Shown: positions 41,543-59,349, numbered from the stretch's first letter. The stretch is 64,000 nucleotides of DNA from an uncultured Spirochaetota bacterium (GCA_963734545.1 CAVTHO010000008.1:800001-864000); one strand, 5' to 3'. Program-made: numbers and translations. The notes: generated from the sequence alone by a model not told the origin.

Positions 41543-42187
41543 CTAGGGCACGATAAGCTTTGCCGCCACCATTCCCACGCCAAAGGGGATGATGATGTTG
41601 TCGAAATTGCCCGCGGGGATCCCTTCCAGGAATGTCGCGGCAGCGGCCACGATGAGCGCATCAGCAGGATTCGAGGTGATGCCGAACGTGACAATGAAGA
41701 CCGCGGCGAAGCATGCGAAGCTTCCGGCCACTGTCTTGCCGTTCAGGAACGGAATCCGCGGCCCCTTGACCACTGTGCCGACCAGGCTTGCGAAGCCGTC
41801 CCCAAAGGCGAGGGCGAAGATGGCGATGGAAGCAGCGGGAAGCGGATACAGCAGCAGGGAAAGCAGGGCACCCAGACCGAGGGTGACCGGACCCAGAACG
41901 AACCTGTCCATGTCCCTTTCACGGGCGGCAATGAGCGTCAGATCGCTCACCACGAGCACGGGGTTGCCCTGACGGCGCGAAGCCTCGGCAAGGGAATAGA
42001 AGATGGTTCCCATGGCCAGGAGGGCTATGGTTGCCGGAAGATTGACGGCGGCCAGAACAGGGACGAGGGCAATGAGGAGGTGAAGTGACTTCCTGACCAT
42101 CTCCCCTTGAAACCTGGCGGCAACTTGAGTACCTTGTGTCTGTCGGCTTTCGGCTTGTCGTAGCAATTCCGGTCTTTCCTGCATCAT
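41543..42187 (-). CDS. CTP-dependent polyprenol/phytol/diacylglycerol kinase (SEC59/VTE5/DGK1 family)
   Basis: RKSLH, LAFGDGFASLVG, GKTVAGS and FDNIIIP motifs. Confidence 0.88.
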   Translation of the reverse strand: MMQERPELLRQAESRQTQGTQVAARFQGEMVRKSLHLLIALVPVLAAVNLPATIALLAMGTIFYSLAEASRRQGNPVLVVSDLTLIAARERDMDRFVLGPVTLGLGALLSLLLYPLPAASIAIFALAFGDGFASLVGTVVKGPRIPFLNGKTVAGSFACFAAVFIVTFGITSNPADALIVAAAATFLEGIPAGNFDNIIIPFGVGMVAAKLIVP

Positions 42188-42210
42188 GTTGTGTTCGCTG
42201 TCATTCTCAA

Positions 42211-42227
42211 TGCAATTTCGATACCAA
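42211..42227 (-). promoter_or_regulatory. Putative sigma-54 promoter of the polyprenol kinase gene
   Basis: Minus strand TTGGTATCGAAATTGCA fits GG-N10-GC (-24/-12), with an AT-rich tract upstream. Confidence 0.55.
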
Positions 42228-42483
42228 CAATGGGCAGAATGAGCTGCTTCTAATTGTTTATAGCTGAATCAATTGAAATGTCGATTTCTTCCCGGCTTCT
42301 GATCAGCACAGGTTTGTCTACTTTCTTGCACTTTAGGCTCTGATTTTCATATAGCGGAAGGGGCACTTTCCCGCAGTTCGCGCGGGTATTCGCGAGTCAG
42401 CGGTACCTTGGGCGGTCAGGCTGCTCAGGCGTCGCTGATTGACAGCAAACCCAGCGCCGATGTACTTTACCAGCAGATTTTCG

Positions 42484-42557
42484 GGGCGATTAACTCAGCG
42501 GCCCAGAGTGCTACCTTCACACGGTAGAAGTCACTGGTTCAAATCCAGTATCGCCCA
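42484..42557 (+). tRNA. tRNA-Val(CAC)
   Basis: GGGCGAT/ATCGCCC-A acceptor stem, CTACC-TTCACAC-GGTAG anticodon arm and GGTTCAAATCC; preceded by a TTGACA...TACTTT promoter; CCA not encoded. Confidence 0.97.
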
Positions 42558-42570
42558 TATTGAGCGAGCC

Positions 42571-44032
42571 ATGAGTGATCTGGGCGCGTACGATGCCATC
42601 GGGCTGGGCGAGCTTGTCCGCAGGCGAAAGGTTTCCCCCGCGGACCTCCTGGAGAACACGATCCGCCGCATCGAGGCGGTCAACCCGAGCCTGAACGCAG
42701 TCATCTGCACGCTCTGGGACCGGGCCCGGGCGGAAGTGAAGAAACGCACGGAAAAGGGTGCTGCCTCCGGCGAGCGCTTCCCCGGCGTTCCCTACCTGTT
42801 GAAGGACCTCCTGACGGACATGCAAGGCGCGCCATTCGCTGACGGGTCCCGGTTCGTGCATGGCCACGTGTCCGCAATCGACAGCGAGCTCGTCGAGCCG
42901 GACTCGCAAGAGCGGTCTTGTCATCGCCGGAAGGACGAACACGTCAGAGCTCGGCGTGCTCACCACCGCGGAGCCGCTTCTCTACGGCCCGGCGCGAAAC
43001 CCATGGAACCTCAGGTTGACAACAGGGGGATCCAGCGGCGGATCGGCAGCCGCCGTTGCGGCGGGCATGGTGCCGATGGCCCACGGCAACGACGGCGGCG
43101 GCTCCATCCGCATCCCCGCGTCCTGCTGCGGAGTGTTCGGCCTGAAGCCGACCCGGGGCCGCAACAGCCTGGGGCCGCTGTTCGGAGACTTCGCCCATGG
43201 CATCGTTTGTGAGCATGCCCTTACCCGCACGGTGCGGGACTCCGCGGCTCTGCTCGACGTCACCTCGGGCGCCGTCCCCGGTGATCCCTACGTTGCCCCG
43301 GCCCCCGCGCGGCCCTTCCTCGAGGAAGCGCGCCGAAGCCCCGGCCGGCTGAAAATCGCTTTCCTCTCTCGCGTGCCCGACGGCTGGAACGAGGAGACGG
43401 CGCTGCATCCGGATTGCGCGGCCGCCGTGCACGATGCCGCTCGGCTCTGCGAGTCCCTCGGCCATACGGTGGTGGAGGCAGACCCGGCCGCCCTTGCCTG
43501 GCCCGACCTGCCCCGGCGTTTCATCACGATTTTCTCATCCTTTGTCGGGCACTCGGTGGCGTACTGGGAGCGTACGCTGGGGAAGTCAGTGACACGGGAG
43601 GATCTGGAGCCGGTGACATGGGACTTGTACCAGGCGAGCCAGGGGATCACCAGTGCCGCCTACCTGGTAACGTGGGAGGAGCTGCAGCGCTTCTCACGCA
43701 AGGTGGCATGCTGGTACCGGGACGGCGGGTGGGATGTCCTCCTGTCCCCCACGATGCAGGTCCCTCCGACGGAACTCGGGTCCTTCGACCCGTCGCCCGG
43801 CGATCCGGGGAAATCGATCAGGCTCGCGCTGTCTTTCGTCGCTTTCACGCGCACGCAGAACATCACCGGGGATCCGGCCATGTCCGTCCCTCTCTACTGG
43901 AACAAGGACGAGGTGCCCATCGGGGTGCAGTTCGCGGCGCCCTTCGGCGCCGAGGCGACGCTCTTCCGGCTCGCCGCGCAACTGGAGAAGGCGCGGCCGT
44001 GGGCTGCGCGGAGGCCGCCCGTGCACTGCTGA
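42571..44032 (+). CDS. Amidase signature family enzyme (frameshift near 42898, probably a sequencing error)
   Basis: GVPYLLKDL in the first frame; [18 protein letters not shown] and [11 protein letters not shown] (Ser-cisSer-Lys triad) in the second frame. Confidence 0.88.
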
Positions 44033-44071
44033 GCCGCCCCTCGAGCAGCGCCGCATAGAATCCACGCTGCT

Positions 44072-44110
44072 CCTGCAATCCTTATTGCGGGCCGCAATCT
44101 GTATTGCAGG
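44072..44110. promoter_or_regulatory. Paired palindromic upstream activator sites (putative bEBP enhancer)
   Basis: GCAAT-N4-ATTGC at 44075 and again at 44094, together forming a larger inverted repeat, about 100-135 bp upstream of the sigma-54 start. Confidence 0.6.
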
Positions 44111-44155
44111 CCGCGCGTGTGTATCGAGCCCCACCTCTTACGCTAATTCTTTACA

Positions 44156-44199
44156 AATAAAGCAATTGACAAATGCCCGATGTTGGCATGCCCCTTGCT
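44156..44199 (+). promoter_or_regulatory. Sigma-54 promoter with IHF-like site
   Basis: TTGGCATGCCCCTTGCT (44183-44199) closely matches TGGCAC-N5-TTGC. AATAAAGCAATTG (44156-44168) is one mismatch from WATCARNNNNTTR. Confidence 0.75.
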
Positions 44200-44211
44200 T
44201 TGTCTCTTGTC

Positions 44212-45189
44212 ATGATGAAGAACATATTGAAGTTCCTGAAAGAGTACGTAAAGTCGATGCGGCTCTACTACTCATTCGTCACGGGCATCGCCGGCTGGAT
44301 CGGCATCACCTGCTATGAGTATTCCGCCGACCTTCCGACCTCGGGAGCCGGCGCAAGAAAACTCGTCATTCTGGTACTTGCGTTCCTGGGCTGGGGAATA
44401 AACCAGATCGTCAACGACTACCTCGGTCTGCCGGAGGACCGAATCAACGCACCCCGGCGGCCCATGGTCACAGGAGCCCTCGACCCTCGGAAAGCTCTGC
44501 TCCTCTCGTCGTTCCTCATGCTTGGTGCTGCTGTGGTCACCTGGCTTTTCCTGGAGCCCATTGCGATCGTGTTCCTCCTGGCAGGAGTCATGCTGAACGT
44601 GCTGTACGAAAAGGCGAAAGGATACGGCGTCTGGGGCAACATCGTTTTCGGCCTGATGATCTGCATGGTGACCCTGTACGGCTTTTTCGCGATGGGCCCC
44701 GTCCATGGATTCCGCTGGCTGTCCCGCATCCTGCCGGTGCTTGCTCTCCTTTGCACGATCAACGGGCTCATGACCCTGTACACGTATTTCAAGGACTACT
44801 CCGGGGATCGACGAACCGGGAAAAGAACATTGATTGTCATCTGGGGGCTGAAGAGATCGAGGATCTGCGCCTTCGCAGGGGCCTTTCTGCCGCTGTCGGT
44901 GTTCGTTCTCCTCATGGCTGCCAACAAGCTCCCCATCCACATTGGCGCCGAGTTCATGCTCCTCGGCTCGCTGGCCCTGGCCCTGCAGATCTGGACAGGA
45001 GCTCTCTTCTATTTGAAGCCCGTCGGAAAGGCGACGTACACATCCCTGGGAGTCAATTTCAAGGCGTGCGTATGCGCGGAAGCCGCCCTGCTGTCACTGT
45101 TCGACCCCCTGCTGGGCGTTCAACTCTTCGTCATTTCGTATTTCGCCGTGACCTTTCTCTTCTTTCTGCACAAAAACGCCAAGGCCTAG
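44212..45189 (+). CDS. UbiA-family intramembrane prenyl/alkyl transferase (DGGGP synthase/ChlG-like)
   Basis: NQIVNDYLGLPEDRINAPRRPMVTG, KGYGVWGN and FKDYSGDRRTGKRTL motifs; multi-TM. Confidence 0.88.
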   Translation: MMKNILKFLKEYVKSMRLYYSFVTGIAGWIGITCYEYSADLPTSGAGARKLVILVLAFLGWGINQIVNDYLGLPEDRINAPRRPMVTGALDPRKALLLSSFLMLGAAVVTWLFLEPIAIVFLLAGVMLNVLYEKAKGYGVWGNIVFGLMICMVTLYGFFAMGPVHGFRWLSRILPVLALLCTINGLMTLYTYFKDYSGDRRTGKRTLIVIWGLKRSRICAFAGAFLPLSVFVLLMAANKLPIHIGAEFMLLGSLALALQIWTGALFYLKPVGKATYTSLGVNFKACVCAEAALLSLFDPLLGVQLFVISYFAVTFLFFLHKNAKA

Positions 45190-45200
45190 AGGAGGAAGTG

Positions 45201-46418
45201 ATGATCGCGCTTCAGCCGGCACGGATCGGCGCAGTGGTACTGAAGAACAGGATAGTCCGTTCGGCAACGTACGAAGGTCGATGCGACGATCATGGATTTC
45301 CGGATGAAAGCTATCGAGACCTGTACGCGGAGCTGGCGCGCAACGAGGTCGGAGCGATGATCACGGGTTTCACCTATATCACGCGTTCCGGCAGAGCCAT
45401 GCAGCCCCGGCAAGCGGGGATCGAGAACGAGTCCAAGATTCGATTCTACCGGGAAGTCACCCGTGCGGTGCACAGCCATGACGGCAGGATATTCATGCAG
45501 CTTGCTCATACGGGGCGGCAGACCTCGCGCCAGGCAACGGGTGAAGAAGTTGCAGGAGCCAGCGGGAAACGGTCTCGCTACTTCAATCAGAAGCCCCGGT
45601 CACTTGAAGCGCGTGAAGTCCTTCGGATCGTGGAGCAGTTCGCCGACTCCGCGGTACGCGCCATGCAGGCCGGGTTCGACGGCATACAGCTCCATGCGGC
45701 ACATGGCTACCTCATTCACCAGTTCCTTTCACCCGCCATCAACACCAGGAAGGACTTGTTCGGCATCGACAGAGAATCTCGGCTGGGAATCCGCTTCCTC
45801 GACCTGATCATCGACTGCATCAGGCAGAAGTGCGGACCGCACTACCCCGTCCTGGTGAAGATCAGCGGCGGGGATGACGGCCGAAACGGCATGTCCGAGA
45901 CTCGGCTCGTACGACTGATTCACTTCCTCAACACCAAGAAGGTGGATGCGATCGAGATCAGTTGCGGCACCATGGAACGTCCACTGGATATCTTTCGCGG
46001 CGCCAGCATTCCGCTGGACGTGATACTGCGCTGCAACCCGCGATACAGGATTCCGGGCGCACTCCGGCGTTCTCTCTGGAAGACCCTGGCCGCGCCTTTC
46101 ATTCTGGCCCGAACAAGGCCGCTCACCCCCGCGTACAATCTCCACTTCGCCGAAACGGCCAAGAGGCATTCGGACGTCCCGATCATCAGCGTGGGCGGCT
46201 TCCGCAGCGGCGGCCAGATCGAGTCGTCCCTCGCCGACGGCAAGACGGACTTCATCGGTTTGTGCAGGCCCCTGCTGTGTGAGCCTGATTTCGTACAGAG
46301 ACTGAAGGAGAACAACTCCTACGTCTCGCGATGCGTCAGCTGCAACGTGTGCGCAGTTCTCTGCGACACGCGAAGTCCGACGCGATGTCATTTCGGGGAG
46401 GCAGTCCATGAGTATTGA
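45201..46418 (+). CDS. NADH:flavin oxidoreductase (Old Yellow Enzyme family) with C-terminal Cys cluster
   Basis: LKNRIVRSAT, QLAHTGR, AGFDGIQLHAAHGYL, SVGGFRS, RPLLCEPD and CVSCNVC..C motifs; GGAGG RBS. Confidence 0.9.
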   Translation: MIALQPARIGAVVLKNRIVRSATYEGRCDDHGFPDESYRDLYAELARNEVGAMITGFTYITRSGRAMQPRQAGIENESKIRFYREVTRAVHSHDGRIFMQLAHTGRQTSRQATGEEVAGASGKRSRYFNQKPRSLEAREVLRIVEQFADSAVRAMQAGFDGIQLHAAHGYLIHQFLSPAINTRKDLFGIDRESRLGIRFLDLIIDCIRQKCGPHYPVLVKISGGDDGRNGMSETRLVRLIHFLNTKKVDAIEISCGTMERPLDIFRGASIPLDVILRCNPRYRIPGALRRSLWKTLAAPFILARTRPLTPAYNLHFAETAKRHSDVPIISVGGFRSGGQIESSLADGKTDFIGLCRPLLCEPDFVQRLKENNSYVSRCVSCNVCAVLCDTRSPTRCHFGEAVHEY

Positions 46419-46659
46419 AGAGCGGGTCATATCAGTGGTGCGAGAAAATCTGGAGAACGGCAGAGAGATCCCCATCACCCCGGGGAGCGAGCTGGTGAAG
46501 GATCTGGAAATCGATTCCGTGAGCGCCCTGACGATCCTTTTCGGTCTGGAAAAGGAGTTCTCCGCTTCTCTGCACGAATCGATGTTCGGCAGCTGCAAGA
46601 CCGTTCACGACGTCATCGCCAGCCTCGAAAGACAGTTGCCGCAGCTGCGGGGAGGCTGA
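46408..46659 (+). CDS. Acyl carrier protein
   Basis: 83 aa acidic protein with DLEIDSV phosphopantetheine motif and LEKEF...TVHD. Confidence 0.9.
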   Translation: MSIEERVISVVRENLENGREIPITPGSELVKDLEIDSVSALTILFGLEKEFSASLHESMFGSCKTVHDVIASLERQLPQLRGG

Positions 46660-46660
46660 G

Positions 46661-47842
46661 ATGAGCACACCGGGTTATCTCGAGCAGCTCACGATCGACA
46701 AGAGCCTCGCGGAAACGCTGAACTTCAACCCGTATTATCAGGTCCTGCGATCCGGTCTGGGAGACCCGATCAGAGTCGGCGGCGAAGAGTTCATCAACCT
46801 CGCTTCGAACAACTATCTCGGCATCGGCAGCTCGGACAGAGTCAAGAAGGCCATGATCGACGGCGTGCAGCGATATGGCGTCTCCATGTGCGGCACTCCC
46901 ATTGCAACCGGCTATGTCGATGCGTTTGCCCGGCTCGAGCGGAGACTGGCCGGGTTCGTCGGTCTGAAGGATTCCACCGTATTCCCCTCCTGCTATCAGG
47001 CGAACCTCGGCGTCTTTTCCGCCATCGCGAGGAAGGAAGATGCGATCATCTTCGACCACTATGCGCATTCGTCCCTCGTGAGCGGCATCAGGGCGGTGGG
47101 ATGCAGGGCGCTGGCATTCCTTCACAACGATACTCGCCATCTGGAGAAGCTCCTGCAGAGCACATCGGGCTGCCGACAGACCTTTGTCGTGACGGAATCC
47201 GTGTTCTCAACTGAAGGGAGCATCGCGCCGTTTCGTGAGATCGTTCAATTGTGCGCCGCGCATGACGCCATTCCTGTCGTTGATGACTCCCACGGCATCG
47301 GCGTGCTCGGAAAGAACGGGCGAGGAATACTCGAGGAGCAGAATATCGAGAGCTACCCGGGCATCTACACGGCCTCCCTGGGCAAGGCGCTCGCAAATTT
47401 CGGAGGAATGGTCGCCGGCAGCGCGAACCTGATCGAATACCTGCGGTATGCCTGCCCCGCTCTCATCTACTCCACGGCCCTGCCGCCTTCGATCCTGCTG
47501 GGAATAGAGGCGGCCCTCGACATTGTCGAAGAGGAATTCACGGTGCGGGCCCGGCGGATGTGGAGATACAAGAACCTCGTATCCTCCCGGCTTCAGGAGC
47601 TCGGCTTTTCAGTCATTGCCGGCGAGGCGCCGATCACATCTGTGGCCTGCGGCGGGCTTGCAGACACGCTGCGCTTCGCCCGGGAGCTCTACTCGCAGAA
47701 GATTCTCGCCACGCCGTTTGTCCCCCCCTCTGTCCCGCCGAACATGGGCAGAGTCCGGCTCATCGCCGGGGCAGACCTGCAGGAGTCTTCCGTCCAGCGG
47801 GCTCTGGATGCCTTTTCCCGGATCGCAGAGGGACGATCATGA
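46661..47842 (+). CDS. PLP-dependent alpha-oxoamine synthase (serine palmitoyltransferase/AONS/KBL family)
   Basis: NPYY N-terminus, NLASNNYLG, SCYQAN, HSSL, FLHND, ESVFSTEG, DDSHGIG and SLGKA (PLP Lys). Confidence 0.9.
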   Translation: MSTPGYLEQLTIDKSLAETLNFNPYYQVLRSGLGDPIRVGGEEFINLASNNYLGIGSSDRVKKAMIDGVQRYGVSMCGTPIATGYVDAFARLERRLAGFVGLKDSTVFPSCYQANLGVFSAIARKEDAIIFDHYAHSSLVSGIRAVGCRALAFLHNDTRHLEKLLQSTSGCRQTFVVTESVFSTEGSIAPFREIVQLCAAHDAIPVVDDSHGIGVLGKNGRGILEEQNIESYPGIYTASLGKALANFGGMVAGSANLIEYLRYACPALIYSTALPPSILLGIEAALDIVEEEFTVRARRMWRYKNLVSSRLQELGFSVIAGEAPITSVACGGLADTLRFARELYSQKILATPFVPPSVPPNMGRVRLIAGADLQESSVQRALDAFSRIAEGRS

Positions 47843-48810
47843 AGTACTTCTTCGTCCTGAATCCGGGCTCCGCGGGAGGGAAGAGCGGACGTCGGTTTTC
47901 CTCTGTGCACGAAGCTGTCACGCGTCGGCGCGTCAGGTTCGATTTCGAGATTTGCCGCAGCCTCGACCACGCGTGCGACCTGTCGCGGATGGCAAACCGG
48001 TCAGGGTACGACGTCGTCGTTGCCGTCGGAGGAGACGGCACCATCAATCAGGTGCTCAACGGATTCTATGACGAAAGGGGCGGGCGGATCTCGGATGCCT
48101 CGCTGGGGGTCCTGCATACGGGAACGAGCCCTGATTTCTGCAAGAGCCACGCCATCCCGTGTCAACTCGAGAGCGCCCTGGAGCTGCTTTTCGGAGGATG
48201 CACGAAGAAGATCCCTGTCGGCAGGATCACGCTGGCACGGCAGTTCGAACCGGCATTCGATGGAAAACCCGTATCGGACGACGCTCTCTTCCACACGCGG
48301 TACTTCGCGTGCTGCGCCAATATCGGCCTGGGAGCATCTGTGGCCCGCTGCGCAAACAACGGAATCAGGAAACGGCTCGGAGACTCTCCGGGCACTTTCA
48401 TTGCCATCCTGAGAAGCCTGGCCCGGTTCGAACAATCCTCCTTCACGATCGTCCGTGATGGCAAAGCCCAGACCATACCCCGGCTCGTCAACCTGGCAAT
48501 CGGAAAGACCTTCCACGTTGCCTCCGGCATCAAAGTCAGGAGCGAGCTGCGCGAGCATGATCGGCGCTTCTACTGCCTTGCTCTCCACGATCTGCGGATG
48601 GTCGATGTCGTGCCCTGCCTCGTGTCGCTCTACAGCGGGAGGACGATCCAGGGCACGGGATACGCGGAGCTCGGGTACTGCTCGTCGATCCAGGTCCTGG
48701 GAAACAGCCGGTATCCCGAAGTGGAATACGACGGAGACCCCCAGGGATTTCTCCCCTGCCGCATCGAGACGGCTGCTGACGAGCTCTCCGTGATCGGAAA
48801 GCCATCATGA
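47839..48810 (+). CDS. Diacylglycerol/sphingosine kinase family protein (YegS/DgkB-like)
   Basis: LNPGSAGG, AVGGDGTINQVLNG, GTSPDF and C-terminal YDGD motifs. Confidence 0.88.
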   Translation: MKYFFVLNPGSAGGKSGRRFSSVHEAVTRRRVRFDFEICRSLDHACDLSRMANRSGYDVVVAVGGDGTINQVLNGFYDERGGRISDASLGVLHTGTSPDFCKSHAIPCQLESALELLFGGCTKKIPVGRITLARQFEPAFDGKPVSDDALFHTRYFACCANIGLGASVARCANNGIRKRLGDSPGTFIAILRSLARFEQSSFTIVRDGKAQTIPRLVNLAIGKTFHVASGIKVRSELREHDRRFYCLALHDLRMVDVVPCLVSLYSGRTIQGTGYAELGYCSSIQVLGNSRYPEVEYDGDPQGFLPCRIETAADELSVIGKPS

Positions 48811-49835
48811 GCGTCGAGAAGAGCCTCATCGAGTTGATCGACCACATTCTCCCGAAGGACCCGACGTGCCTGACCAAATGCTTCGAAGCAGATGCCCAGG
48901 TCATCAGGCTGGGCACCGGGACATTCGTCTTTTCGACTGATGGATTCTCGCACGAGGACCTGCTGCAGGAGAAAGATCCCTTCCGCCTTGGCTGGAACGT
49001 CGCGGTGGGCGCAATCAGCGACATCCTTGCCGTCGGCGGCGTGCCTCTGCTCTATGCGCACACGATGAGCATCGAGCCCCGGTGGAACGCGGCCTTCATT
49101 GAGAGATTTTCCAGAGGGGTGGCCAGGGCGCTGGAGTTGTCCGGGATCACCTTCATCGGGGGTGATCTCGGAAGGTCGGGAGAATGGAAGTATGCCGCCT
49201 CGGTGATCGGCACGCTGGCGGGAGAGCCGGTGCTCAGAAAGGGCGCATCCGAAGGAGACAGCATCTACCTTTCCGGCGAGGTCGGCGCCGGCAACCTGGA
49301 AGCGGCCATGAGCCTGTACGCCCGCAGGGTGGGATGTGCCGCGGCGGCGGGCAGGATCTGCGGCAGGTTCCACCTCCGCCTCTCGGAAGCCAGGCTCATG
49401 AAAAAGTACGCGACATCCGCAATCGACACCAGCGACGGCGTCTTTGACGCCCTGAGCACGTTGTCTGAGATAAATGGTACCGGCTACGTCGTGGAGAATC
49501 TGCCGTACCTCCGGCGGGGAGTCCTGCTCGCGAAGCTCCTCGCGGTGCCCCCATCCCTCCTCTTCTTCGGCGGATGCGGCGAGTACGAGCTTCTCTTCAC
49601 GGTCAAGAGAGAAGAGGAGGCGGCGTTCCTGTCGGAGGCGCGGGAAAAAGGGCTGAGGTTCTACCGGCTGGGCGGAATAACCGGCGGGAAATCTCCGCAA
49701 AAGATTCTGCGGGAAAACGGCGCGCGCATCGATCTGTCACAGGTGAGCATGTCGGCCCGGGACTTCGGCACTGCGGAGGAGTACCTGGAGAAACTGCAGG
49801 CGATGGTGGAGGGACTGAAATGCCAAGGGTCGTGA
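48807..49835 (+). CDS. Thiamine-monophosphate kinase (ThiL)-like kinase, PurM/AIRS fold
   Basis: FSTD, ISDILAVGG, IGGD, RKGASEGD, IDTSDG and GEYELLFT motifs. Confidence 0.82.
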   Translation: MSVEKSLIELIDHILPKDPTCLTKCFEADAQVIRLGTGTFVFSTDGFSHEDLLQEKDPFRLGWNVAVGAISDILAVGGVPLLYAHTMSIEPRWNAAFIERFSRGVARALELSGITFIGGDLGRSGEWKYAASVIGTLAGEPVLRKGASEGDSIYLSGEVGAGNLEAAMSLYARRVGCAAAAGRICGRFHLRLSEARLMKKYATSAIDTSDGVFDALSTLSEINGTGYVVENLPYLRRGVLLAKLLAVPPSLLFFGGCGEYELLFTVKREEEAAFLSEAREKGLRFYRLGGITGGKSPQKILRENGARIDLSQVSMSARDFGTAEEYLEKLQAMVEGLKCQGS

Positions 49836-51088
49836 TCACGGGCATCGGAATCCTGACCTCGCTCGGAGTCGGGAAGGATGAGTTCATGCGGAACCTCTTT
49901 CTGCAGAAAACTCCTCTGGCAGCCATACCCGCCTCTTTTGAGAAGCATTATTCCTTTACATCCAGGTTCTATGTTCCGTTCTCGGTTCCCGCCCTGAACG
50001 ACTATGGCATCCCGTCGCATCATCAATGCTTCATGCAGGACGCTCACAAGATCGCCGTTATTGCCGCGAAACTGGCTCTCTCGGACGCGGGGTTCTTGAT
50101 TTCCAGTGACGGGCGATCCTTCAGAATCGAAGAGCTCGCGGATTGCGGCGTCTGCATCGGGATGGGCTTCCTGGGGATGCGCGAGGGCTTCTCATCATAC
50201 CTCGCCCACCTGGCCGGCGAGGACGGGCCGCCGTTTTCCTGGATCTCGAAAAGCGTCCGGTTCAACAGGCTGATCATCCCGGTCATGATGCCCAATTCAG
50301 TGTCGGCATGGATTTCGATCCTGTTTCATCTCAATGGAAGCTCCTGCACCGTGAATGCCTCCTGCGCGTCGGGAACGCTGGCCATCGGCGAGGCATTCAG
50401 GAGGATAAAGGACGGATACGAGACGGTGGCCCTGGCAGGCGGGGTGGAATGCCTGAAAGACGAATGCGGCGGCGTGATGCGCGGGTTCGATGTTCTCGGA
50501 GCGCTCACCCGGGCGGAAGACGGCAGACCGTTGCCCTTTTCAGGCCGGAGAAGCGGCTTTCTTTTTTCGGAGGGCGGCGGATGCATCCTCGTCCTGGAAG
50601 AGCTCGCGCATGCGCGAAGTCGCGGCGCTTCGATATATGCTGAAATCGCCGATTTCAGGTCAAACAGCGACGCCTGCAGCATTCTCCAGATGGAGGGGAG
50701 CGGGGCGCAGATCAGGAGACTCCTGAAGGACCTGAAAGGCGATCGGACCATCGACTATCTGAACTCCCACGGCACGGGAACGGCGGCAAACGATTCGATC
50801 GAGGCGCGAGCCATTCACGAGGTCTTCGGCAGCAGAGACGCGCAGCCGTTCATCGACGCGACAAAAGGGATACTTGGCCACACCGTGGGAGCCAGCGGAG
50901 CCATAGAGGCCGCCGTGGTGGCGCTGTCCATCAGGGAATCCAGGATTCATGGCAGTGCGGTACCTGACCCCATCCCTGATCTCAATCTCGCTTCCTGCAA
51001 TCAGAGCTTGCCCATCACGTACGCCATCTCGACATCCTACGGGTTCGGAGGGCACAACGCCGGACTCCTCTTTCGGAGGTATGGATGA
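49820..51088 (+). CDS. Beta-ketoacyl-ACP synthase (FabF-like)
   Basis: RVVITGIG, ASCASG (Cys), NSHGTGT (His), KGILGHT (His) and SYGFGGHN motifs. Confidence 0.92.
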   Translation: MPRVVITGIGILTSLGVGKDEFMRNLFLQKTPLAAIPASFEKHYSFTSRFYVPFSVPALNDYGIPSHHQCFMQDAHKIAVIAAKLALSDAGFLISSDGRSFRIEELADCGVCIGMGFLGMREGFSSYLAHLAGEDGPPFSWISKSVRFNRLIIPVMMPNSVSAWISILFHLNGSSCTVNASCASGTLAIGEAFRRIKDGYETVALAGGVECLKDECGGVMRGFDVLGALTRAEDGRPLPFSGRRSGFLFSEGGGCILVLEELAHARSRGASIYAEIADFRSNSDACSILQMEGSGAQIRRLLKDLKGDRTIDYLNSHGTGTAANDSIEARAIHEVFGSRDAQPFIDATKGILGHTVGASGAIEAAVVALSIRESRIHGSAVPDPIPDLNLASCNQSLPITYAISTSYGFGGHNAGLLFRRYG

Positions 51089-52139
51089 TGGACCGTGTCA
51101 TGATCACCGGCGCCACCGGTTTCATCGGGAGTCACATCACCCGCGCGTTCATCGGGCATGGCGTGAAGGTGGGCTGTCTCGTGCGGCGATGCAGCGATCT
51201 CGCGAATCTCGAAGGGCTGAACGTCGAGCTGCGGTATGGGGACATTCGGGACAGAGAAAGCCTGGTCAGCGCTTTCAAGGACTATGACGCGGTCATTCAC
51301 AATGCCGCCCTCGTTGCCGACTGGGGGCCATACAGGGATTTCTACCAGACCAACGTGCGGGGCACGCTCAATGTCATGGACGGCATGCCTGCAGAACGGT
51401 ATTGAGAAGATCATCATGGCAGGCTCCAACGCCGTGTATGGTGAGGAAGACTGCAGGACATCAAAGAACGAGGATTCACCTCTCAATCCCCATTACCGCT
51501 ATTTTCTCGGGAGAATTGTTCCCTGCAAGCTCAACTATTACCGGGACACCAAGACCCTGGCAACGGTCCTCGCTTCGGACTACGCCCGGAAGTTCGGGCT
51601 GAACCTCACGATTCTGGATCCCGGTGTGGGTGTACGGCGAGCGGGAGCTGCATACCGGCTTCTACGAGTACCTTCGCTCGGTACAAGGCGGGATGATCGT
51701 CACGCCGGGATGCAGACGCAACAAGTTCCATGCCATTTATGCGGGAGATCTGGCAGAGGCGTATTACTGTGCGTTCCGCAAGGGAGTGAGCGGTGTCAGA
51801 AGGTTTATCATCGGCAATGAGCGAGCCGAGCGAATGTCCACAATCTACGGGCTTCTCTGCCGTGAAGCTCGGCTCAAGCCGCCGCGAAACCTCCCCAAGT
51901 TCATTTTCTACCCGGTCGGGCTTCTCATGGAAATCCTCTGGAGCGCGCTGGGTTTCGCGGCGCCGCCGCTGCTGACCCGGGGAAGGGTGAACCTCTTCTA
52001 CGACAGCATCACGTACTCCGTGGAAAAGGCGAAAAAGATGCTCGGCTTTGCGGGCACGTACTCCCTGGAGGAGGGCATCGCAAGGACCGTGTCCTGGTAT
52101 CGAACAAATCACCTGCTGCAGGGGAGGGAAAAACCATGA
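51085..52139 (+). CDS. Extended SDR / NAD-dependent epimerase-dehydratase (3-beta-HSD/CerR-like); two +1 frameshifts near 51380 and 51622
   Basis: TGATGFIG, GDIRD, HNAA and NVRGT in frame 1; SNAVYG and YRDTK (YxxxK) in frame 2; VWVYG...DLAEA...KAKKMLGF in frame 3. Confidence 0.85.
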
Positions 52140-53437
52140 TCGATCCTCGAAGCGTATCCGGTCTCGCCAAGCACGTTTTCAATGCAAAATTGAAGCTTGT
52201 CATTTTCTTTCGCTTCATGCGCCCTCTGATCACAGGGGAGCTGTCTCCGGCCCGGTTCATCCTGCTCCTGAGGAGGCTGCTGTATTTCTTCTCTCGACTC
52301 CAGAGCAACAAGTTCGTTCGGATCGGGAAACAGACGCGAGTCGATCTCTATGTCCCGTTTTTTCCCACGAAGGCATTCTTCGCTGCCTGCCGCAAGTTCA
52401 CGACCTTCGGTGAAAAGCTGCCCTGCACGACCGCCCTCATTTCAGTCACTTCGGCCTGCCGCTTCAACTGCAGCCACTGCTACCAGAAGATGGACCGTGG
52501 AAAGGACGTGGATATCGGACGGCTGGTTCAGGTGGCGGCAAGGCTGCAGGAGAAGGGCATTGCTTTCTTCAACATCGAAGGTGGTGAACCGTTTCTCGTG
52601 TTCGACCGTCTCAGGAGAGTATGCGCGGCAATCGATGACCGGTCGGAGGTATGGGTGAACTCCACCGGCGACGGAATGACTTTGGAACGGCTCCGGGAGC
52701 TGAAAACGCTGAATCTCACCGCCGTCATGTTCTCTCTGCATTCGCCTGTCCCTGATGATTTCAACGCTTTTCTGGGATCTGAGAGAGCCTGGGCCACGAT
52801 GCTGAACGGGGTCCATCTCTGCCATCAGGCCGAGGTGCCCGTGGCGTTCAATATGTGCCTGCAGAGAGAAGGCTTCTCTGACGGGACTTTCGAGCGGCTC
52901 ATGGACAAGGCCAGGGAGCTCGGGGCGTCGATCATCCAGCTCATCAAGCCGAAGCCCTCGGGAGGATGGCTGCGCTGCGGCGTGGAGGAGTTCCGGCCGC
53001 AGGACGTCATGCGCATGAAAACCCTGGTCAGTGACTACAACACCAGGCGCGAGTACGGAGATTTTCCCTCGATCTCAGCACAGATGCTCGAGGAAGATCC
53101 GTCGCGCTTCGGCTGCACGGCGGGAGGAACCGATCGGTTCTATATCAACGCGAAAGGGGATCTGCAGCCCTGTGAGTTTCTGAACCTGTCTTTCGGGAAT
53201 ATCGCCACGGACGACTTCGACACAATCTATGACACCATGAGAAGCTGCTTCGAGAGGCCCGGCGTGAACTGGCTGTGCGAGAAATGCGCCGGCAGCGTCC
53301 TCCAGCGTGTCACGAGCCATGACCTGCACTCCCTTCCGCTCGACCCAGGGCTCTCCAGGGAAGTCTACGGGTCCTGGGATCGGGGCAGTCCGACGGAGCT
53401 CTATGACACCATCGAGAACAGGTTGAGCCCCCGTTGA
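52136..53437 (+). CDS. Radical SAM enzyme with SPASM/twitch-like C-terminus
   Basis: CRFNCSHC (CxxxCxxC), GGEP and GCTAG...INAKGDLQPCEF, plus further Cys residues. Confidence 0.9.
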   Translation: MIDPRSVSGLAKHVFNAKLKLVIFFRFMRPLITGELSPARFILLLRRLLYFFSRLQSNKFVRIGKQTRVDLYVPFFPTKAFFAACRKFTTFGEKLPCTTALISVTSACRFNCSHCYQKMDRGKDVDIGRLVQVAARLQEKGIAFFNIEGGEPFLVFDRLRRVCAAIDDRSEVWVNSTGDGMTLERLRELKTLNLTAVMFSLHSPVPDDFNAFLGSERAWATMLNGVHLCHQAEVPVAFNMCLQREGFSDGTFERLMDKARELGASIIQLIKPKPSGGWLRCGVEEFRPQDVMRMKTLVSDYNTRREYGDFPSISAQMLEEDPSRFGCTAGGTDRFYINAKGDLQPCEFLNLSFGNIATDDFDTIYDTMRSCFERPGVNWLCEKCAGSVLQRVTSHDLHSLPLDPGLSREVYGSWDRGSPTELYDTIENRLSPR

Positions 53438-53480
53438 TTGAAGCTCTCCATGCGGGCCGTTCTCCTGAAGTCAAGAGTCG

Positions 53481-56400
53481 TCAGCTGGAGCTGGCGAACG
53501 CCGAAACGAGGCCACCCACGTAATCCTTGACCGGCGGAGAGCTCCACATGCCGGATTCCTGACCGCGGCGGAGCAGCTCGAGGATCTCCGGCCCTTCTTC
53601 CACGAAGATGCGGAGGTATCCCTCAGGCTGCGCCAGCCCTACAGCTTCGCTCAGAGCATCAAGGGCATCCCCCTGGGCGGAAGCCGAGGCCCTTGCTTTC
53701 GCCTGGAGGACGAGGATCTCGATGAGGGGACCAATGCGTCCTCCCGACCGCGCAGAGAAGGCAAGGTCATCGAGCAGGCGCGAGATGTCGGCCGAGCCCG
53801 GGTCCGTCACACCGGCAGCCAGGCGAACCCGGGCCAGGCAGATGAGCTCCACCTCCCGATTCACAGGACTCGCCGCTTTCCCCGGCTTGTACTCGCGCAT
53901 CCACGCCTCGGCAGCTGCGCTGTCCCCGCACGCGAGATACGTCTTCACCCTGTCGGCCTCGAAAATCGGCAGGAGCGTGGCATGGATGAGGGCGCGCCGC
54001 GGAAGCGATTGTACTTTCGCAAGCTCCTCCTGCGCCCGCGCGGCCTGTCCACGCGATCGGAGCACGCGCGCCAGCGACTGGCGGGTGAGATACACGTCGG
54101 AGGGCAGGCCCCACGCCTCCACGTCCTTCACCGCTTTTTCGGCAATCCTCAGCGCGTCATCAAGCTCGCCTCGTTCCCTCTTGAGCTCAGCCATCAGGGC
54201 ATACACTTTGGCGATCGGCCCGCTCCCGCGCGCGTGGCGCCGCCCCGCCAGGGCATCGAACTCCTCCAGCAGGGCCAGCGCATCGCGGAGCCGGCCCTGA
54301 AGGCGGCGGAGATGCGCAAACTCGTACACCGCGCTGGCGATCGACCAGATGCTTCCGGCGGCATGGCTCGCCCGCAGAAACTCCTTGCAGCCCTCCTCGG
54401 CTTTTTCCAGCTCTCCCTGGTAGCGATAGGATTTTTCCAGGATATAGAGGATCAAAGTCCTGGGCATATCTTCCTTCGGGGGCAGGAGCCGGTCAGCCCT
54501 GCCGGCGAGCTCGACGGCCTCCGCGGTCTCCCCTGCCATGTCGGCGAGAACGGCCCGGATGATTGCCACGGTTCCCTCGAGGGTCCGGATGCTGTCGGAA
54601 TCCTTCCCGGCTTCGGAAATACTCTTCTCCGTCCGATCCAGCAGAGCCTCGGCCTCCTGCCGTCGTCCCGCCCATGCCAGGGTCCAGGCAGCGGCCATGC
54701 AGTGTCCGGGGCGTTTCTCCATCACCTCCGAGGGGATCTCCCTGCACCAGCGCTGCAACTGGCTCAGCGCACCCTGGCCGATGATATCGAAGAACCTTGC
54801 CTCGATGAGGTCCGCGGCTTTCTCGTGGGCCTCTGCCGCCAGGTATTCCTGGATCGCCTCGACGAGCTCCCCCTGTCCGGCAAACCAGTCGCCCGCCCTG
54901 ATGTGGAGTGCATGAATCTTCTCGGGAAGCCGCTCGAGCTCCAGCTTGTGCCGCAGCAGGTCGGCGAAGAGGTGGTGGTAGCGAAACCAATTCCTCTGCT
55001 CGTCCAGGGGGACGAGGAACAGGTTCATCCGCTCCAATTGCTGCAGGGTCTCCTGGCATCCACGCCGTCCTGTCACCGCTTCGCACAACCCGGCGCTCAT
55101 CCTGGTCATGATCGAAGTATCGAGGAGAAGCTGCTTGAGGTCTTCGTCCAGACGGGAAAACACCTCCTCGGCAAGATATTCCAGGATGTAGCGTTGAGTT
55201 CCGCTGAAAGACGCGATGAAGCCGTCCACGTCCTCCCGTCCCTGAAGGGAGAGAGCCGCCATCTGCAGCCCCGCAACCCAGCCTTCGGTCCGCTTCTCCA
55301 GCACGGCGACCTGGGCCGGGGAAAGGGACAGGGACATTGCCCGATCGAAGAATTGCTCGGCCTCGGCGGCGGTGAAACGCAGATCTTCCGCGCGAATTTC
55401 CGCAACGCGGTCCTGCGAGCGCAGGCGCGCGAGCGGAAAGGGCGGATCGGCACGGCTTGCAATGAAGATGCCGAGCGACGCAGGCCTGTGGTCGATCAGG
55501 AACCGCACCGCTGCATGGACCTCCAGCGTGTGGATGAACTGGTAGTCGTCAAGGACCAGGGCGATGCCCTTCCCCTGCTCCTCGATGGCGTTGATCAGGG
55601 CGGTCATGACGAGCTCTGCCGGGGCGGGCGGCGTGGCCCGCAGCATCTGGCTCGCCTCCTCCCCCACGCCCTCCCCGGTCCTCATGATCGAAGCTGCGAG
55701 GTGGAGCAGGAAGCGGGGGAGATCATTGTCTCCCTCATCGAGTGAGAGCCAGGCGACAGGCATCCCGGCCCGCGCAGCCAATTCAGAAAGGATTGTCGTC
55801 TTGCCAAAACCAGCCGGAGCGGATACGACCACCAGGCCGCGCGCCAGGCCCTGCTCGAGGAGGCGGATGAGCCTGCCTCTTCTGACCATTCCATCGCGAA
55901 CGGGTGGAACCGAAAGCTTGGTGCCGAGCAGGCCCGGGAAAAGATCTGCGCCCTGCGCGGGCGGCTGCACCGCTCGCGGCTCTTCGATCCGGTGAGCTGC
56001 GCATTCGACTCTCCGGGCCCGGCTCGCGGTGTGTCCTTCGTTTTCTCCCGCGGTCCGATCTGACGGGACAGGATCTGGTTGTAGAGGTCCCGGGTCCCCT
56101 TTTCCGGTTCCTGGCCAAACTCTCCCCGCAGCGCCTCGGCAAACTCCTCGTACTGCCTGATGGCGGCGCTTCGCTGACCCGAAAGCGCAAGCGTCTGTAT
56201 CAGCAGGGCCTGGGCCTGCTCGTGCATCCTGTCCTGCGCAAGCCAGCGCTTCACCGACTGGAGAGCATCTTCCCAGCGCTCGGCCGCGGCGTGACAACGG
56301 GCAGATCTCTCGAGAAGCCACCCGAGCTCGGCTCTCAGGCTCTCCCTTTCCGCCACCTGCCAGTCGTCGAACCCAGGGCAGCCAGGGAGGTTGAAGCCTT

Positions 56401-56833
56401 CGAGGAACTCGCCCTGGAAGAGCCGTATCGCATTCACCACCCGCTCGAGGCACTCAGGGCACCGCTCCCCTGATTCGTGAGGATGGGCCTTTACATCCGC
56501 GACAAGCCGCCGCGCGGCACGCACGTCGATCCACAGGTCCGCGTCCGACCGCACGCTTATCCTGTCCCGCTCTGGCTCCAGCCAATCCCCGGGAATGCTC
56601 GCGTGGAGCGAGGCGAGGCTCCGCCGCAGGTTCGCAGGAGCGCGATTCTGGTCGAATTCCGGCCAGAAGAGGGCCGCCAGTTTCTCCCGCGATTGGGGAT
56701 GCTCGTTCAGACTGAGATAGGCAAGAAGGGCGGTGGTCTTTCGCGTTTCGAGCCGCACGTGGCTGCCGGAGAGCTCGACTCGAGGGTGACCGAGCCAGTA
56801 GAGCCCCAGGCGCGGCCCGCTTCCCTGCTTCAC
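53481..56833 (-). CDS. SARP (wHTH+BTAD) fused to a MalT-type STAND ATPase/TPR regulator (frameshift near 55950-56030)
   Basis: ALLAYL...SREKLAALFWPE...FLEGF...FDDW BTAD part in one frame; TKLSVPP, APAGFGKTT, WLSLDEGDND, LVLDDY, TEGW and FRYHHLF in the other; no C-terminal LuxR HTH. Confidence 0.82.
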
Positions 56834-56920
56834 AAACTGATATTGTACACGCCGCTGCGGCACGGGACAAGACCGGGAGCATAGTGTGATAGAATGGCCT
56901 GCCGGACGAGGAGTAGAGTC

Positions 56921-58734: not shown

Positions 58735-59349
58735 CTATGACCCGGCCGCTGCCCGGGCGTGACTACGGATAAGCTCGACAAAGTAGCGATGCATTCTGCT
58801 GTCCCCCGTCAGTTCCGGGTGGAACGCTGCAACGAGCATATGCCGCTCCCGGGCCGCAACGATCGTTCCATCCGGGAGACGGGCGAGCACTTCCACTTCA
58901 GCCCCCACTGAGGCAATGGCGGGTGCGCGGATGAAGACAGCGCGCATTGGCGGGTCTCCCAGCACCGGAACCGGGATCAGCGTCTCAAAGGACTGGAGCT
59001 GACGACCGAAGGCATTCCTGCGCATGCGAAGGTCCATGAGCCCCAGGAGAGGCTGGTCGAGCCCGCCGATGTCACGGGCAAGCACGATAGCGCCGGCGCA
59101 CGTGCCGAACACTGGCATTCCCGCCGCGATGCGTTCGCGGGACAGACCCAGCAGGCCGCAGTCATGCATGAGCTTGCCGATGGTCGTGCTCTCCCCGCCG
59201 GGAATGACGAGGCCGTCCACCTCTGACAGCTGTCGTGTCGTTCGAATCTCCACGGGCTCGACGCGCGCGAAGGATTCCGCGTTCAATTCGCGCAGAATGG
59301 CGACGTGCTCGGAAAAATCCCCCTGGAGGGCGAGGACGCCGATCCTCAT
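58735..59349 (-). CDS. pdxT: Pyridoxal 5'-phosphate synthase glutaminase subunit
   Basis: GVLALQG, PGGEST, GTCAG, RNAFGRQ, FIRAP and FHPE motifs. Confidence 0.96.
   Translation of the reverse strand: MRIGVLALQGDFSEHVAILRELNAESFARVEPVEIRTTRQLSEVDGLVIPGGESTTIGKLMHDCGLLGLSRERIAAGMPVFGTCAGAIVLARDIGGLDQPLLGLMDLRMRRNAFGRQLQSFETLIPVPVLGDPPMRAVFIRAPAIASVGAEVEVLARLPDGTIVAARERHMLVAAFHPELTGDSRMHRYFVELIRSHARAAAGS

Follow-up and report, generated by a model that had tools for sequence, protein, structure and literature searches.

The stretch of DNA analysed here, called the window below, comprises 64,000 nucleotides from an uncultured Spirochaetota bacterium (GCA_963734545.1 CAVTHO010000008.1:800001-864000; one strand, 5' to 3'), and our subject is a cassette of nine plus-strand genes at positions 44212-53437. 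We put at about one in two the chance that these genes form one horizontally mobile biosynthetic operon, the core of which builds a long-chain amino-alcohol lipid that is phosphorylated and membrane-bound, a function predicted from gene content and from comparison across genomes. Pfam assigned eight of the genes directly, and the ninth is an extended short-chain dehydrogenase/reductase (SDR). The features, with the genes in their order on the plus strand, are as follows.

44042-53482, no strand assigned: whole insert of 9,441 bp, between an amidase gene (stop at 44032) and a convergent MalT-like gene (stop at 53481-53483).
44042-44211, plus strand: 5' non-coding leader, part of the insert, starting 9 nt past the amidase stop, with nested inverted repeats.
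44212-45189, plus strand: UbiA-superfamily membrane transferase (Pfam UbiA, 91.8 bits).
45198-46418 (start approximate), plus strand: OYE-family flavin reductase with a predicted Fe-S cluster, accessory (Oxidored_FMN, 180.4 bits).
46408-46659, plus strand: dedicated acyl carrier protein (ACP), accessory (PP-binding, 26.1 bits).
46661-47842, plus strand: pyridoxal phosphate (PLP)-dependent alpha-oxoamine synthase (AOS), core (Aminotran_1_2, 143.4 bits).
47839-48810, plus strand: DAGK_cat/YegS-type lipid kinase, core (DAGK_cat, 78.1 bits; YegS_C, 28 bits).
48807-49835, plus strand: ThiL-like protein of the PurM/AIR-synthase superfamily, core (AIRS, 59.2 bits; AIRS N and C domains).
49820-51088, plus strand: FabF-like beta-ketoacyl-ACP synthase (KS), accessory (ketoacyl-synt N, 102.6 bits; C, 77.7 bits).
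51085-52139, plus strand: extended SDR with the NAD-dependent epimerase/dehydratase fold, core (three reading frames in the window).
52136-53437, plus strand: radical SAM protein with a SPASM domain, core (Radical_SAM, 59.2 bits; SPASM, 25.2 bits).

The nine genes are closely packed. Seven of the eight junctions overlap or abut (four ATGA overlaps, two overlaps of 11 and 16 nt, and one 1-nt spacer), and the UbiA/OYE junction is a gap of 8-11 nt with AGGAGG inside it; UbiA also has an alternative start at 44173. An earlier, sequence-only reading had described nine same-strand genes with tight junctions here, which the open reading frames (ORFs), Pfam and our reading of the junctions confirm, and all nine of its family assignments hold under Pfam and NCBIfam. 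In NCBIfam, all the proteins scored under the curated cut-off of the nearest named family. The leader gave an RNA-folding z-score of -2.3, an Rfam scan of 42300-53700 returned a tRNA-Val alone, and a promoter and terminator scan stayed at chance level, with no promoter-like site above it.

Comparison with other genomes indicates that this arrangement is not due to chance, because every tblastn match lay on the strand of the radical SAM gene in 81 of 81 loci, 53 loci held all eight large families, and 48 of those 53 kept the window's gene order. The loci are the best 80 of 157 relatives, which a scan with an alignment, covering one genome for each species, recovered among 268 pattern matches, together with one locus from a related genome (G025), all compared by tblastn with the nine window proteins. 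The radical SAM sequence alone matched no relative in genome contigs, and an alignment query was needed. Among the 53 loci, four showed the circular permutation ThiL-KS-SDR-radical SAM-UbiA-OYE-ACP-AOS-DAGK and one (L088) another order, while the remaining 28 of the 81 were mostly cut by contig ends. All nine families were detected in 36 loci, the ACP being short and weakly detected (48 of 81 by tblastn). When ORFs of at least 90 aa were clustered across 82 loci (the 81 and the window), seven clusters, each in at least 67 loci, covered the eight large families, the ACP lying under the size cut-off. No further family was conserved in more than 21 of the 82 loci, and the 21-locus cluster was a 150-aa helix-turn-helix protein confined to Bacillota. 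The proposal that the genes belong together as a unit is thus upheld by the 53 loci that hold all eight large families.

The 80 scanned loci carried 16 phylum names, led by Bacillota (36), Bacteroidota (17) and Omnitrophota (8), with the spirochaetes in addition. For the radical SAM protein, 877 homologues reached E <= 1e-20 in a collection clustered at 90% identity, and 73 of 1.84 billion representatives at 50% identity reached E <= 1e-30. The best named homologues came from Omnitrophota, Clostridia, Desulfosporosinus, Latescibacterota and one Spirochaetales metagenome-assembled genome (MAG; P0038). A UbiA search around genome G454 matched one of 201 phylum-sample genomes, which was G454 itself. 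In one Clostridiales MAG (G451, locus L084), OYE, ACP, AOS, SDR and radical SAM genes lie on one contig, UbiA and ThiL-like genes on another and a second ThiL-like gene on a third, a pattern that reads as a cassette either split or partly duplicated. Full-text searching found no paper with this nine-gene combination, in line with the earlier statement that no characterised pathway is known to combine an AOS with UbiA and ThiL, and the terms UbiA, radical SAM, operon and gene cluster were absent from the examined passages of a Black Sea sphingolipid study (PMC11334938). That study includes "Spt-like" proteins of Cloacimonadota that have neither CerR nor bacterial ceramide synthase as a neighbour.

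In the wetland spirochaete whose genome holds the window, the cassette appears to be a recently gained, rare and horizontally acquired insert, because related metagenome contigs include an empty-site joint and because the cassette is rare among relatives and phylum genomes. Logan contigs of four metagenome runs (X1, X2, X3 and X6; three from wetland, one from freshwater) were mapped to 42000-54000, and contigs with 96-99% identity to the window account for most of the operon. In X2, a single contig of depth 8.66 passes straight from 44041 to 53483. The 9,441 bp that it skips extend from 9 nt past the end of the amidase gene to the stop codon of the convergent MalT-like gene, and in this contig the MalT-like gene directly adjoins the amidase. 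This joint is one contig in one of the four runs; its left side covers 82 nt with one extra T, and its right side covers 515 nt with 23 differences. X2 also holds cassette-bearing contigs at similar depth. Because the joint runs from 44041 to 53483, the leader at 44042-44211 would travel with the cassette.

An orthologue of the radical SAM gene was present in one of 40 relatives (G025, with the same gene order and 58% identity). Among 20 genomes of the same genus the best match reached only E 1e-19, and matches at E <= 1e-80 occurred in three of 401 phylum-sample genomes, the window's own genome (G000) included. By this distribution, the cassette is not a spirochaete trait. Its GC content (0.592) is lower than that of the two flanks (0.637 and 0.650), and neither an integrase nor a direct repeat was seen at its ends. 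The amidase has an orthologue in each of two congeners (G014, 93% identity; G006, 91%); after this gene, neither the cassette nor the MalT-like gene nor the hybrid kinase gene that follows it in the window was found, and homology of G014 to the window resumes at 58739. We interpret these two genomes as showing a variable region rather than a clean empty site.

Gene content across loci points to a six-gene core made of three pairs (AOS and SDR, DAGK-type kinase and ThiL-like enzyme, UbiA and radical SAM), with ACP, KS and OYE as accessories, because a shorter, diverged form in Verrucomicrobiota and a set of natural fusions define it. Seventeen of 401 sampled Verrucomicrobiota genomes gave matches, found through the fusion protein P0138, and we examined ten loci. 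All ten held UbiA, radical SAM, DAGK, ThiL-like, AOS and SDR genes at 26-48% identity to the window proteins, nine in the order UbiA-radical SAM-DAGK-ThiL-(OYE)-AOS-SDR. OYE was present in five of the ten, ACP and KS in none, and no further family was conserved across them. The DAGK and ThiL-like genes adjoin in both cassette types. Among the loci of the window type, KS was absent from seven in which 4 kb or more of sequence lay upstream (L012, L061, L062, L065, L071, L074 and L075), L074 lacked both ACP and KS, and L070 lacked OYE. The sequence-only reading had treated KS, ACP and OYE as integral parts of the pathway, which these loci contradict. Five genomes had loci that looked incomplete or rearranged (UbiA missing from three, the ThiL-like gene from one), and both orthologues were present in all five, on the same or another contig.

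The fusions join the radical SAM protein to lipid enzymes. UbiA::radical SAM proteins P0138 and P0139 have UbiA halves 35-36% identical to the window UbiA, and their 90%-identity clusters contain seven and six full-length members on separate contigs; two Verrucomicrobiota genomes (G827 and G954) encode the fusion as one open frame. SDR::radical SAM fusions occur in P0128, L082 and L089, Cloacimonadota being among the groups with this fusion, and a more distant relative (P0224) is a fusion with a PlsC-type acyltransferase. Because the partners are UbiA, SDR and a PlsC-type acyltransferase, the radical SAM enzyme probably works in a lipid or membrane context. Other relatives of this protein are P0127 (1467 aa, fused to DUF362) and P0219 (676 aa, fused to a class I methyltransferase). 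For the ThiL-like protein, a single ThiL::KS fusion on a 2.6-kb contig was too thin to use.

One locus differed from all the others. In Mangrovibacterium lignilyticum (L065:3522-8926), the KS slot is filled by a 734-aa NodU/CmcH-type carbamoyltransferase, and a 551-aa AMP-binding acyl-activating enzyme lies upstream of the ThiL-like gene, an arrangement unique among the 81 loci. This is a hint that the product made there may be carbamoylated. With KS replaced by a carbamoyltransferase and an AMP-binding enzyme upstream, the locus also suggests that KS and ACP do no more than deliver an acyl chain.

Several lines of evidence indicate that the cassette AOS represents a separate subfamily of oxoamine synthases, because it forms its own clade, scores under the curated cut-offs and coexists with canonical serine palmitoyltransferase (SPT). 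Against SPT models it scored 247.6 bits versus 640 (CFB type), 220.1 versus 500 (beta) and 160.1 versus 670 (alpha). It also fell below the cut-offs of bioF (311.6 versus 426.45), glycine C-acetyltransferase (Kbl; 279.7 versus 460) and CqsA (212 versus 428). In searches against PDB sequences, the scores in bits were 201 for KBL, 194 for Thermus BioF/KBL, 171 for SPT, 168 for BioF, 157 for cysteate acyltransferase, 146 for ALAS and 122 for CqsA. The PLP lysine in the SLGK motif and the DDSHG motif are conserved.

We placed the protein in an unrooted tree of 91 rows (IQ-TREE, quick mode; fragments L096 and L097 and six duplicate cassette loci omitted), with paralogues from the window's genome and ten carrier genomes, labelled where they exceeded a curated cut-off, and with three KBL, two BioF and two CFB-type SPT references, but without CqsA, ALAS or RedL/PigH. 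Relative to these seven labelled references, the 67 cassette sequences grouped as a single clade (SH-aLRT 100; stem 1.44), at tree distances of 2.6 from SPT, 2.9-3.1 from BioF and 3.2-3.4 from KBL. The BioF and Kbl proteins of the carrier genomes fell outside this clade, in agreement with the earlier expectation that the AOS would not group with BioF or Kbl. A canonical SPT (687.7 bits, CFB type) coexists with the cassette in two of five Bacteroidota carriers searched (G047 and G050).

These results, together with the lack of any conserved ceramide-synthase-type gene in or beside the 82 loci (bacterial ceramide synthase, bCerS, was not searched genome-wide), count against membership of the sphingolipid family, and the term "sphingoid" that the sequence-only reading had applied is better read as an analogy. 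A study of S. multivorum SPT attributes serine recognition to subtle rearrangements and water molecules (PMC10196870), from which no transferable sequence rule could be derived for the amino-acid substrate of the cassette AOS. The window's genome has a separate Kbl (519.5 versus a cut-off of 460) and further AOS-family genes. One, at G000:C7:898021-898645 (L096 and L097), is broken into at least three frames, and its first 146 residues match CFB-type SPT best (185.6 bits); this genome may thus have, or once have had, its own SPT-like gene. Two intact AOS paralogues at G000:C8:298349-299386 and G000:C6:294943-295944 scored below all curated cut-offs.

The catalytic signatures of all the enzyme families are conserved, in 30-70 orthologues each. 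The UbiA protein belongs to its superfamily by Pfam score (91.8 against a gathering score of 34.2) and by two acidic motifs, NDxxGxxED and YFKDYxGD, which are kept across 65 orthologues. Its nearest NCBIfam models are of the prenyltransferase and digeranylgeranylglyceryl phosphate synthase (DGGGPS) type, at 70-75 bits against cut-offs of 269-353, and it falls well short of the two DGGGPS equivalogs (72.3 versus 296 and 70.3 versus 353). DGGGPS and ChlG models, which are O-prenylating, gave 56-75 bits against 29.5 for an aromatic C-prenylating UbiA model, and DGGGPS 6m31 was the sole match in a PDB sequence search. By these comparisons, the protein is nearest to the DGGGP synthase and chlorophyll synthase types.

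The OYE protein is of the FadH/BaiCD N-terminal type, without the NAD(P)H/FAD domains and with a C-terminal Cys cluster. In NCBIfam it matches Fe-S flavoenzymes of 640 aa, but over their N-terminal portion only, and HAAHGYL and a C-terminal CxxCxxCx3C..C are kept in 66 orthologues. The ACP has its DS attachment motif in at least 95% of 51 sequences. The KS keeps its Cys-His-His triad motifs in 65 orthologues and scored 246.8 against a cut-off of 493.75 for fabF (TIGR03150), outside that family. In the DAGK-type kinase, both lipid-kinase domains exceed their thresholds (DAGK_cat 78.1 versus 23.6, YegS_C 28 versus 27), the GGDG motif is conserved in 68 orthologues, the PDB matches are DgkB and YegS, and every equivalog model scored under its cut-off.

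The ThiL-like protein is nearest, by model and PDB scores, to phosphomonoester kinases. It resembles ThiL in its best model, in its AIRS N and C domains and in its best PDB matches, which are eight thiamine-monophosphate kinases, and the ESM Atlas returned only clusters named "thiamine monophosphate kinase family". It differs in scoring 127.4 against the thiL cut-off of 184.15 (TIGR01379) and in being encoded always with a lipid kinase and UbiA, not with thiamine genes. Across the window's genome, no protein exceeded the thiL cut-off, and the second-best match scored 87.2.

The radical SAM protein exceeds the thresholds of both its domains (Radical_SAM 59.2 versus 29.5, SPASM 25.2 versus 21.5). 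All 51 sequences compared keep the CxxxCxxC motif (C108, C112 and C115) together with the SPASM and C-terminal cysteines, and ahead of these the protein has a conserved N-terminal domain, roughly 95 aa long. Its AlphaFold model has a pLDDT of 92.5. The best Foldseek matches were SkfB, SuiB, TigE, BlsE and MoaA (TM about 0.5, identity 12-18%, E 5e-14 to 4e-08), generic SPASM/twitch neighbours only, and SkfB was the sole match in a PDB sequence search. The protein shares a radical SAM core and a C-terminal auxiliary-cluster domain with SPASM/twitch enzymes such as SkfB, SuiB, CteB, anSME, MoaA and PqqE. Unlike them, it has its own N-terminal domain and fusions to lipid enzymes, and no peptide substrate gene was found: the ACP is the only conserved small ORF beside it, ORFs under 80-90 aa not having been clustered.

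The SDR gene is interrupted in the window, probably by assembly indel errors rather than gene decay, because two extra bases, near 51381 and at 51620-51623, do not occur in the contigs of X1, X2 and X6, the three related runs with coverage at both places (X3 has none). The frame changes coincide with both extra bases, and with the two removed the protein reads like the consensus of its 30-sequence family, all members of which keep TGxxGxxG and Y152xxxK156. G025 encodes the orthologue in a single open frame. The frameshifts noted earlier are therefore present in the window as described, but defects of the gene itself they likely are not. The best PDB match of the protein was 3wj7 (75 bits). As an extended SDR with TGxxGxxG and YxxxK motifs, it is a candidate, no more, for a CerR-type reductase. 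Other genes in this genome, which totals 5.1 Mb in 10 contigs, are fragmented likewise. A third single extra base, at 42894/42895 in the amidase gene (42860-44032, plus strand), is missing from related metagenome contigs and is likely a single-base assembly error; the amidase matches its Pfam model only from position 83 on, with the break near 42894.

Taken in the order of their predicted substrates, the enzymes suggest a pathway. The AOS would make an alpha-amino ketone by condensing an amino acid with a fatty acyl thioester, with the dedicated ACP delivering the acyl chain and KS helping in the window's form. The SDR would reduce the ketone to an amino alcohol, whose hydroxyl the DAGK-type kinase would phosphorylate. 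The ThiL-like enzyme would then carry out a second ATP-dependent phosphoryl transfer, most simply from monophosphate to diphosphate, as ThiL does on thiamine phosphate. At the membrane, the DGGGPS-like UbiA would attach an isoprenoid chain to the phospho-lipid by an ether or amine link, this chain standing in for the N-acyl chain that ceramide synthase adds in known pathways. The radical SAM enzyme and the accessory OYE/Fe-S reductase would tailor the product independently of oxygen. We favour the phospho-amino-alcohol as the isoprenoid acceptor because UbiA is nearest to the O-prenylating DGGGPS and ChlG, because no ceramide synthase is conserved and because the radical SAM protein is fused to lipid enzymes.

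The reaction proposed here is of the type known from archaeal DGGGPS, which uses an isoprenoid diphosphate to O-alkylate a phospho-lipid with a single chain. The DGGGPS structure (6m31) is the only one that the UbiA sequence matched, and DGGGPS models are among the best in NCBIfam. The cassette protein differs in its low score (72.3 versus 296 bits), in having NDxxGxxED instead of NDxxDxxxD, in lacking a GGGP synthase partner and in the radical SAM fusions of its relatives. A more far-reaching and tentative possibility is that the product is a new class of membrane lipid, a sphingoid-isoprenoid hybrid built on a twice-phosphorylated amino alcohol with an archaeal-type linkage, remodelled by the radical SAM enzyme, made independently of oxygen and spread horizontally in at least 17 phyla.

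Several points weigh against a phosphorylated amino-alcohol lipid made in this way. The pathway is a prediction from the genes, and the role given to OYE is a guess; whether the amino-alcohol compound serves UbiA as acceptor or as donor, neither arrangement explains the OYE or the radical SAM reaction. SPT, BioF and KBL all lie at broadly similar tree distances from the AOS (2.6-3.4), which singles out neither an amino acid nor an acyl length. Enzymes of the PurM superfamily also catalyse amide and carbonyl activation, and the ThiL-like reaction may be something other than a phosphoryl transfer. Across the 82 clustered and 10 Verrucomicrobiota loci, neither a prenyl-diphosphate synthase nor a head-group transferase is conserved with the set. 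Because a Gly replaces the canonical second Asp of UbiA motif 1, the enzyme may use a diphosphate other than the usual prenyl diphosphates. In fold, the radical SAM protein comes closest to peptide-modifying enzymes, and that the carriers are all anaerobes is our presumption from the named taxa only. Of the earlier interpretation, the family set, its conservation as a unit and the distinction of the AOS from BioF/Kbl stand, and an Spt-type sphingoid pathway with KS, ACP and OYE in its core does not.

Some of these points would suit an arrangement in which the two ATP-dependent enzymes convert the amino alcohol to a diphosphate that UbiA uses as donor onto some acceptor. The substrate classes chain well (alcohol to monophosphate by the DAGK fold, to diphosphate by the ThiL-like enzyme, to a diphosphate-binding UbiA), the two kinase genes are adjacent in both cassette types, the lack of a conserved prenyl-diphosphate synthase fits, and the altered motif 1 would suit an unusual diphosphate. 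Plants have a comparable chain, in which phytol kinase and phytyl-phosphate kinase feed chlorophyll synthase or homogentisate phytyltransferase of the UbiA family; it likewise runs from alcohol through monophosphate and diphosphate to a UbiA-family enzyme, but with kinases of other families and with an isoprenoid alcohol rather than a product of an oxoamine synthase. However, UbiA chemistry needs an ionisable, allylic-type diphosphate, which a saturated amino-alcohol diphosphate is not, no conserved gene suggests an acceptor, and the fused relative P0139 keeps the canonical NDxxDxxxD; this donor role is a serious alternative, but we regard it as unlikely. Still less probable is a heterocycle or signal, for which KS would form a 3-oxoacyl-ACP, the AOS would add an amino acid to give a pyrrolinone, a pyrrole or a CqsA-type alpha-hydroxyketone, and UbiA would prenylate the ring of a small redox-active or signalling lipid. 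KS (with its triad intact), ACP, AOS and a reductase do stand together in the window, as in the 2-undecylpyrrole branch of prodiginine synthesis (RedP/Q/R/L/K), and OYE could reduce a cyclic enone. Unlike that branch, the cassette has KS and ACP as accessories, missing from the ten Verrucomicrobiota loci and L074 (KS from all seven loci above), and it has UbiA and radical SAM, no bipyrrole genes, and two kinases to which a heterocycle would give no role. UbiA is also nearer to O-prenylating than to ring C-prenylating models, and the CqsA score is about half its cut-off.

We give very little weight to an ordinary bacterial ceramide pathway, with the AOS as a divergent Spt, the SDR as CerR and the kinase as ceramide kinase. 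In Caulobacter-type ceramide and phosphosphingolipid synthesis, the enzymes are AcpR, AasR, Spt, CerR, bCerS and the ceramide kinase CpgB (PMC9386255, PMC10331486, PMC11087976), the ceramide kinase is a DAGK-fold enzyme, and a bacterial dihydrosphingosine kinase is also named (PMC10331486). The cassette shares these enzyme types (PMC9386255, PMC10331486) in its dedicated ACP, PLP-dependent oxoamine synthase, epimerase-fold NAD(P) reductase and DAGK-fold kinase with GGDG, and the AMP-binding enzyme of L065 stands where an acyl-ACP synthetase would be expected. In contrast to that pathway, the cassette AOS lies outside the SPT clade and under all three SPT cut-offs and coexists with a canonical SPT (687.7 bits) in G047 and G050, the cassette and its surroundings have no conserved gene of the ceramide-synthase type, UbiA, ThiL-like and radical SAM genes without counterpart there are invariant, and the ACP is dispensable. 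A similarly slim chance attaches to a peptide-tethered product, for which the SPASM enzyme would act as a maturase of ribosomally synthesized peptides on the small carrier protein or an unannotated peptide. The nearest folds (SkfB, SuiB, TigE and CteB) are peptide maturases with N-terminal recognition domains, and the cassette protein has a conserved N-terminal extension; the TM-scores are only about 0.5, however, the sole conserved small ORF is the ACP, which is missing from the six-gene form, and the fusion partners are not peptide-processing domains. We rejected the view that these are chance neighbours and housekeeping BioF/Kbl, FabF, ThiL and AcpP as having practically no probability. The best curated model of each protein is indeed a housekeeping family, but the sub-cut-off scores, the block conservation and the empty-site contig refute it: the genome has its own Kbl, a related population lacks exactly this block, and the set moves as a block across phyla.

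Around the insert, a tRNA-Val (CAC) lies at 42484-42557 on the plus strand, 1.5 kb upstream, and tRNAs of other organisms explain a very high contig depth in that bin. On the other side, the MalT-like gene (53481-56453, minus strand) encodes a 990-aa STAND/TPR regulator and converges on the cassette. The next gene after it, at 56894-58720 on the plus strand, encodes a hybrid histidine kinase with a receiver domain.

For this genome, the cassette appears as a discrete and recent insert, and the apparent pseudogene inside it is probably an assembly artefact. The six-gene core is common to Bacillota, Bacteroidota, Omnitrophota, Verrucomicrobiota, Spirochaetota and many candidate phyla, and cultured carriers exist, which makes the question of its product directly testable; among the carriers are Desulfosporosinus lacus DSM 15449, D. 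hippei DSM 8344, Mangrovibacterium lignilyticum, Petroclostridium sp. X23 and Acetivibrio alkalicellulosi DSM 17461. If that product is a lipid, a widespread membrane component of sediment, wetland and digester bacteria would have been overlooked. A function would then be given to an AOS clade that surveys of "Spt homologues" could misread, a ThiL paralogue would gain a role outside thiamine synthesis, and the natural UbiA::radical SAM fusion would be available for enzymology.

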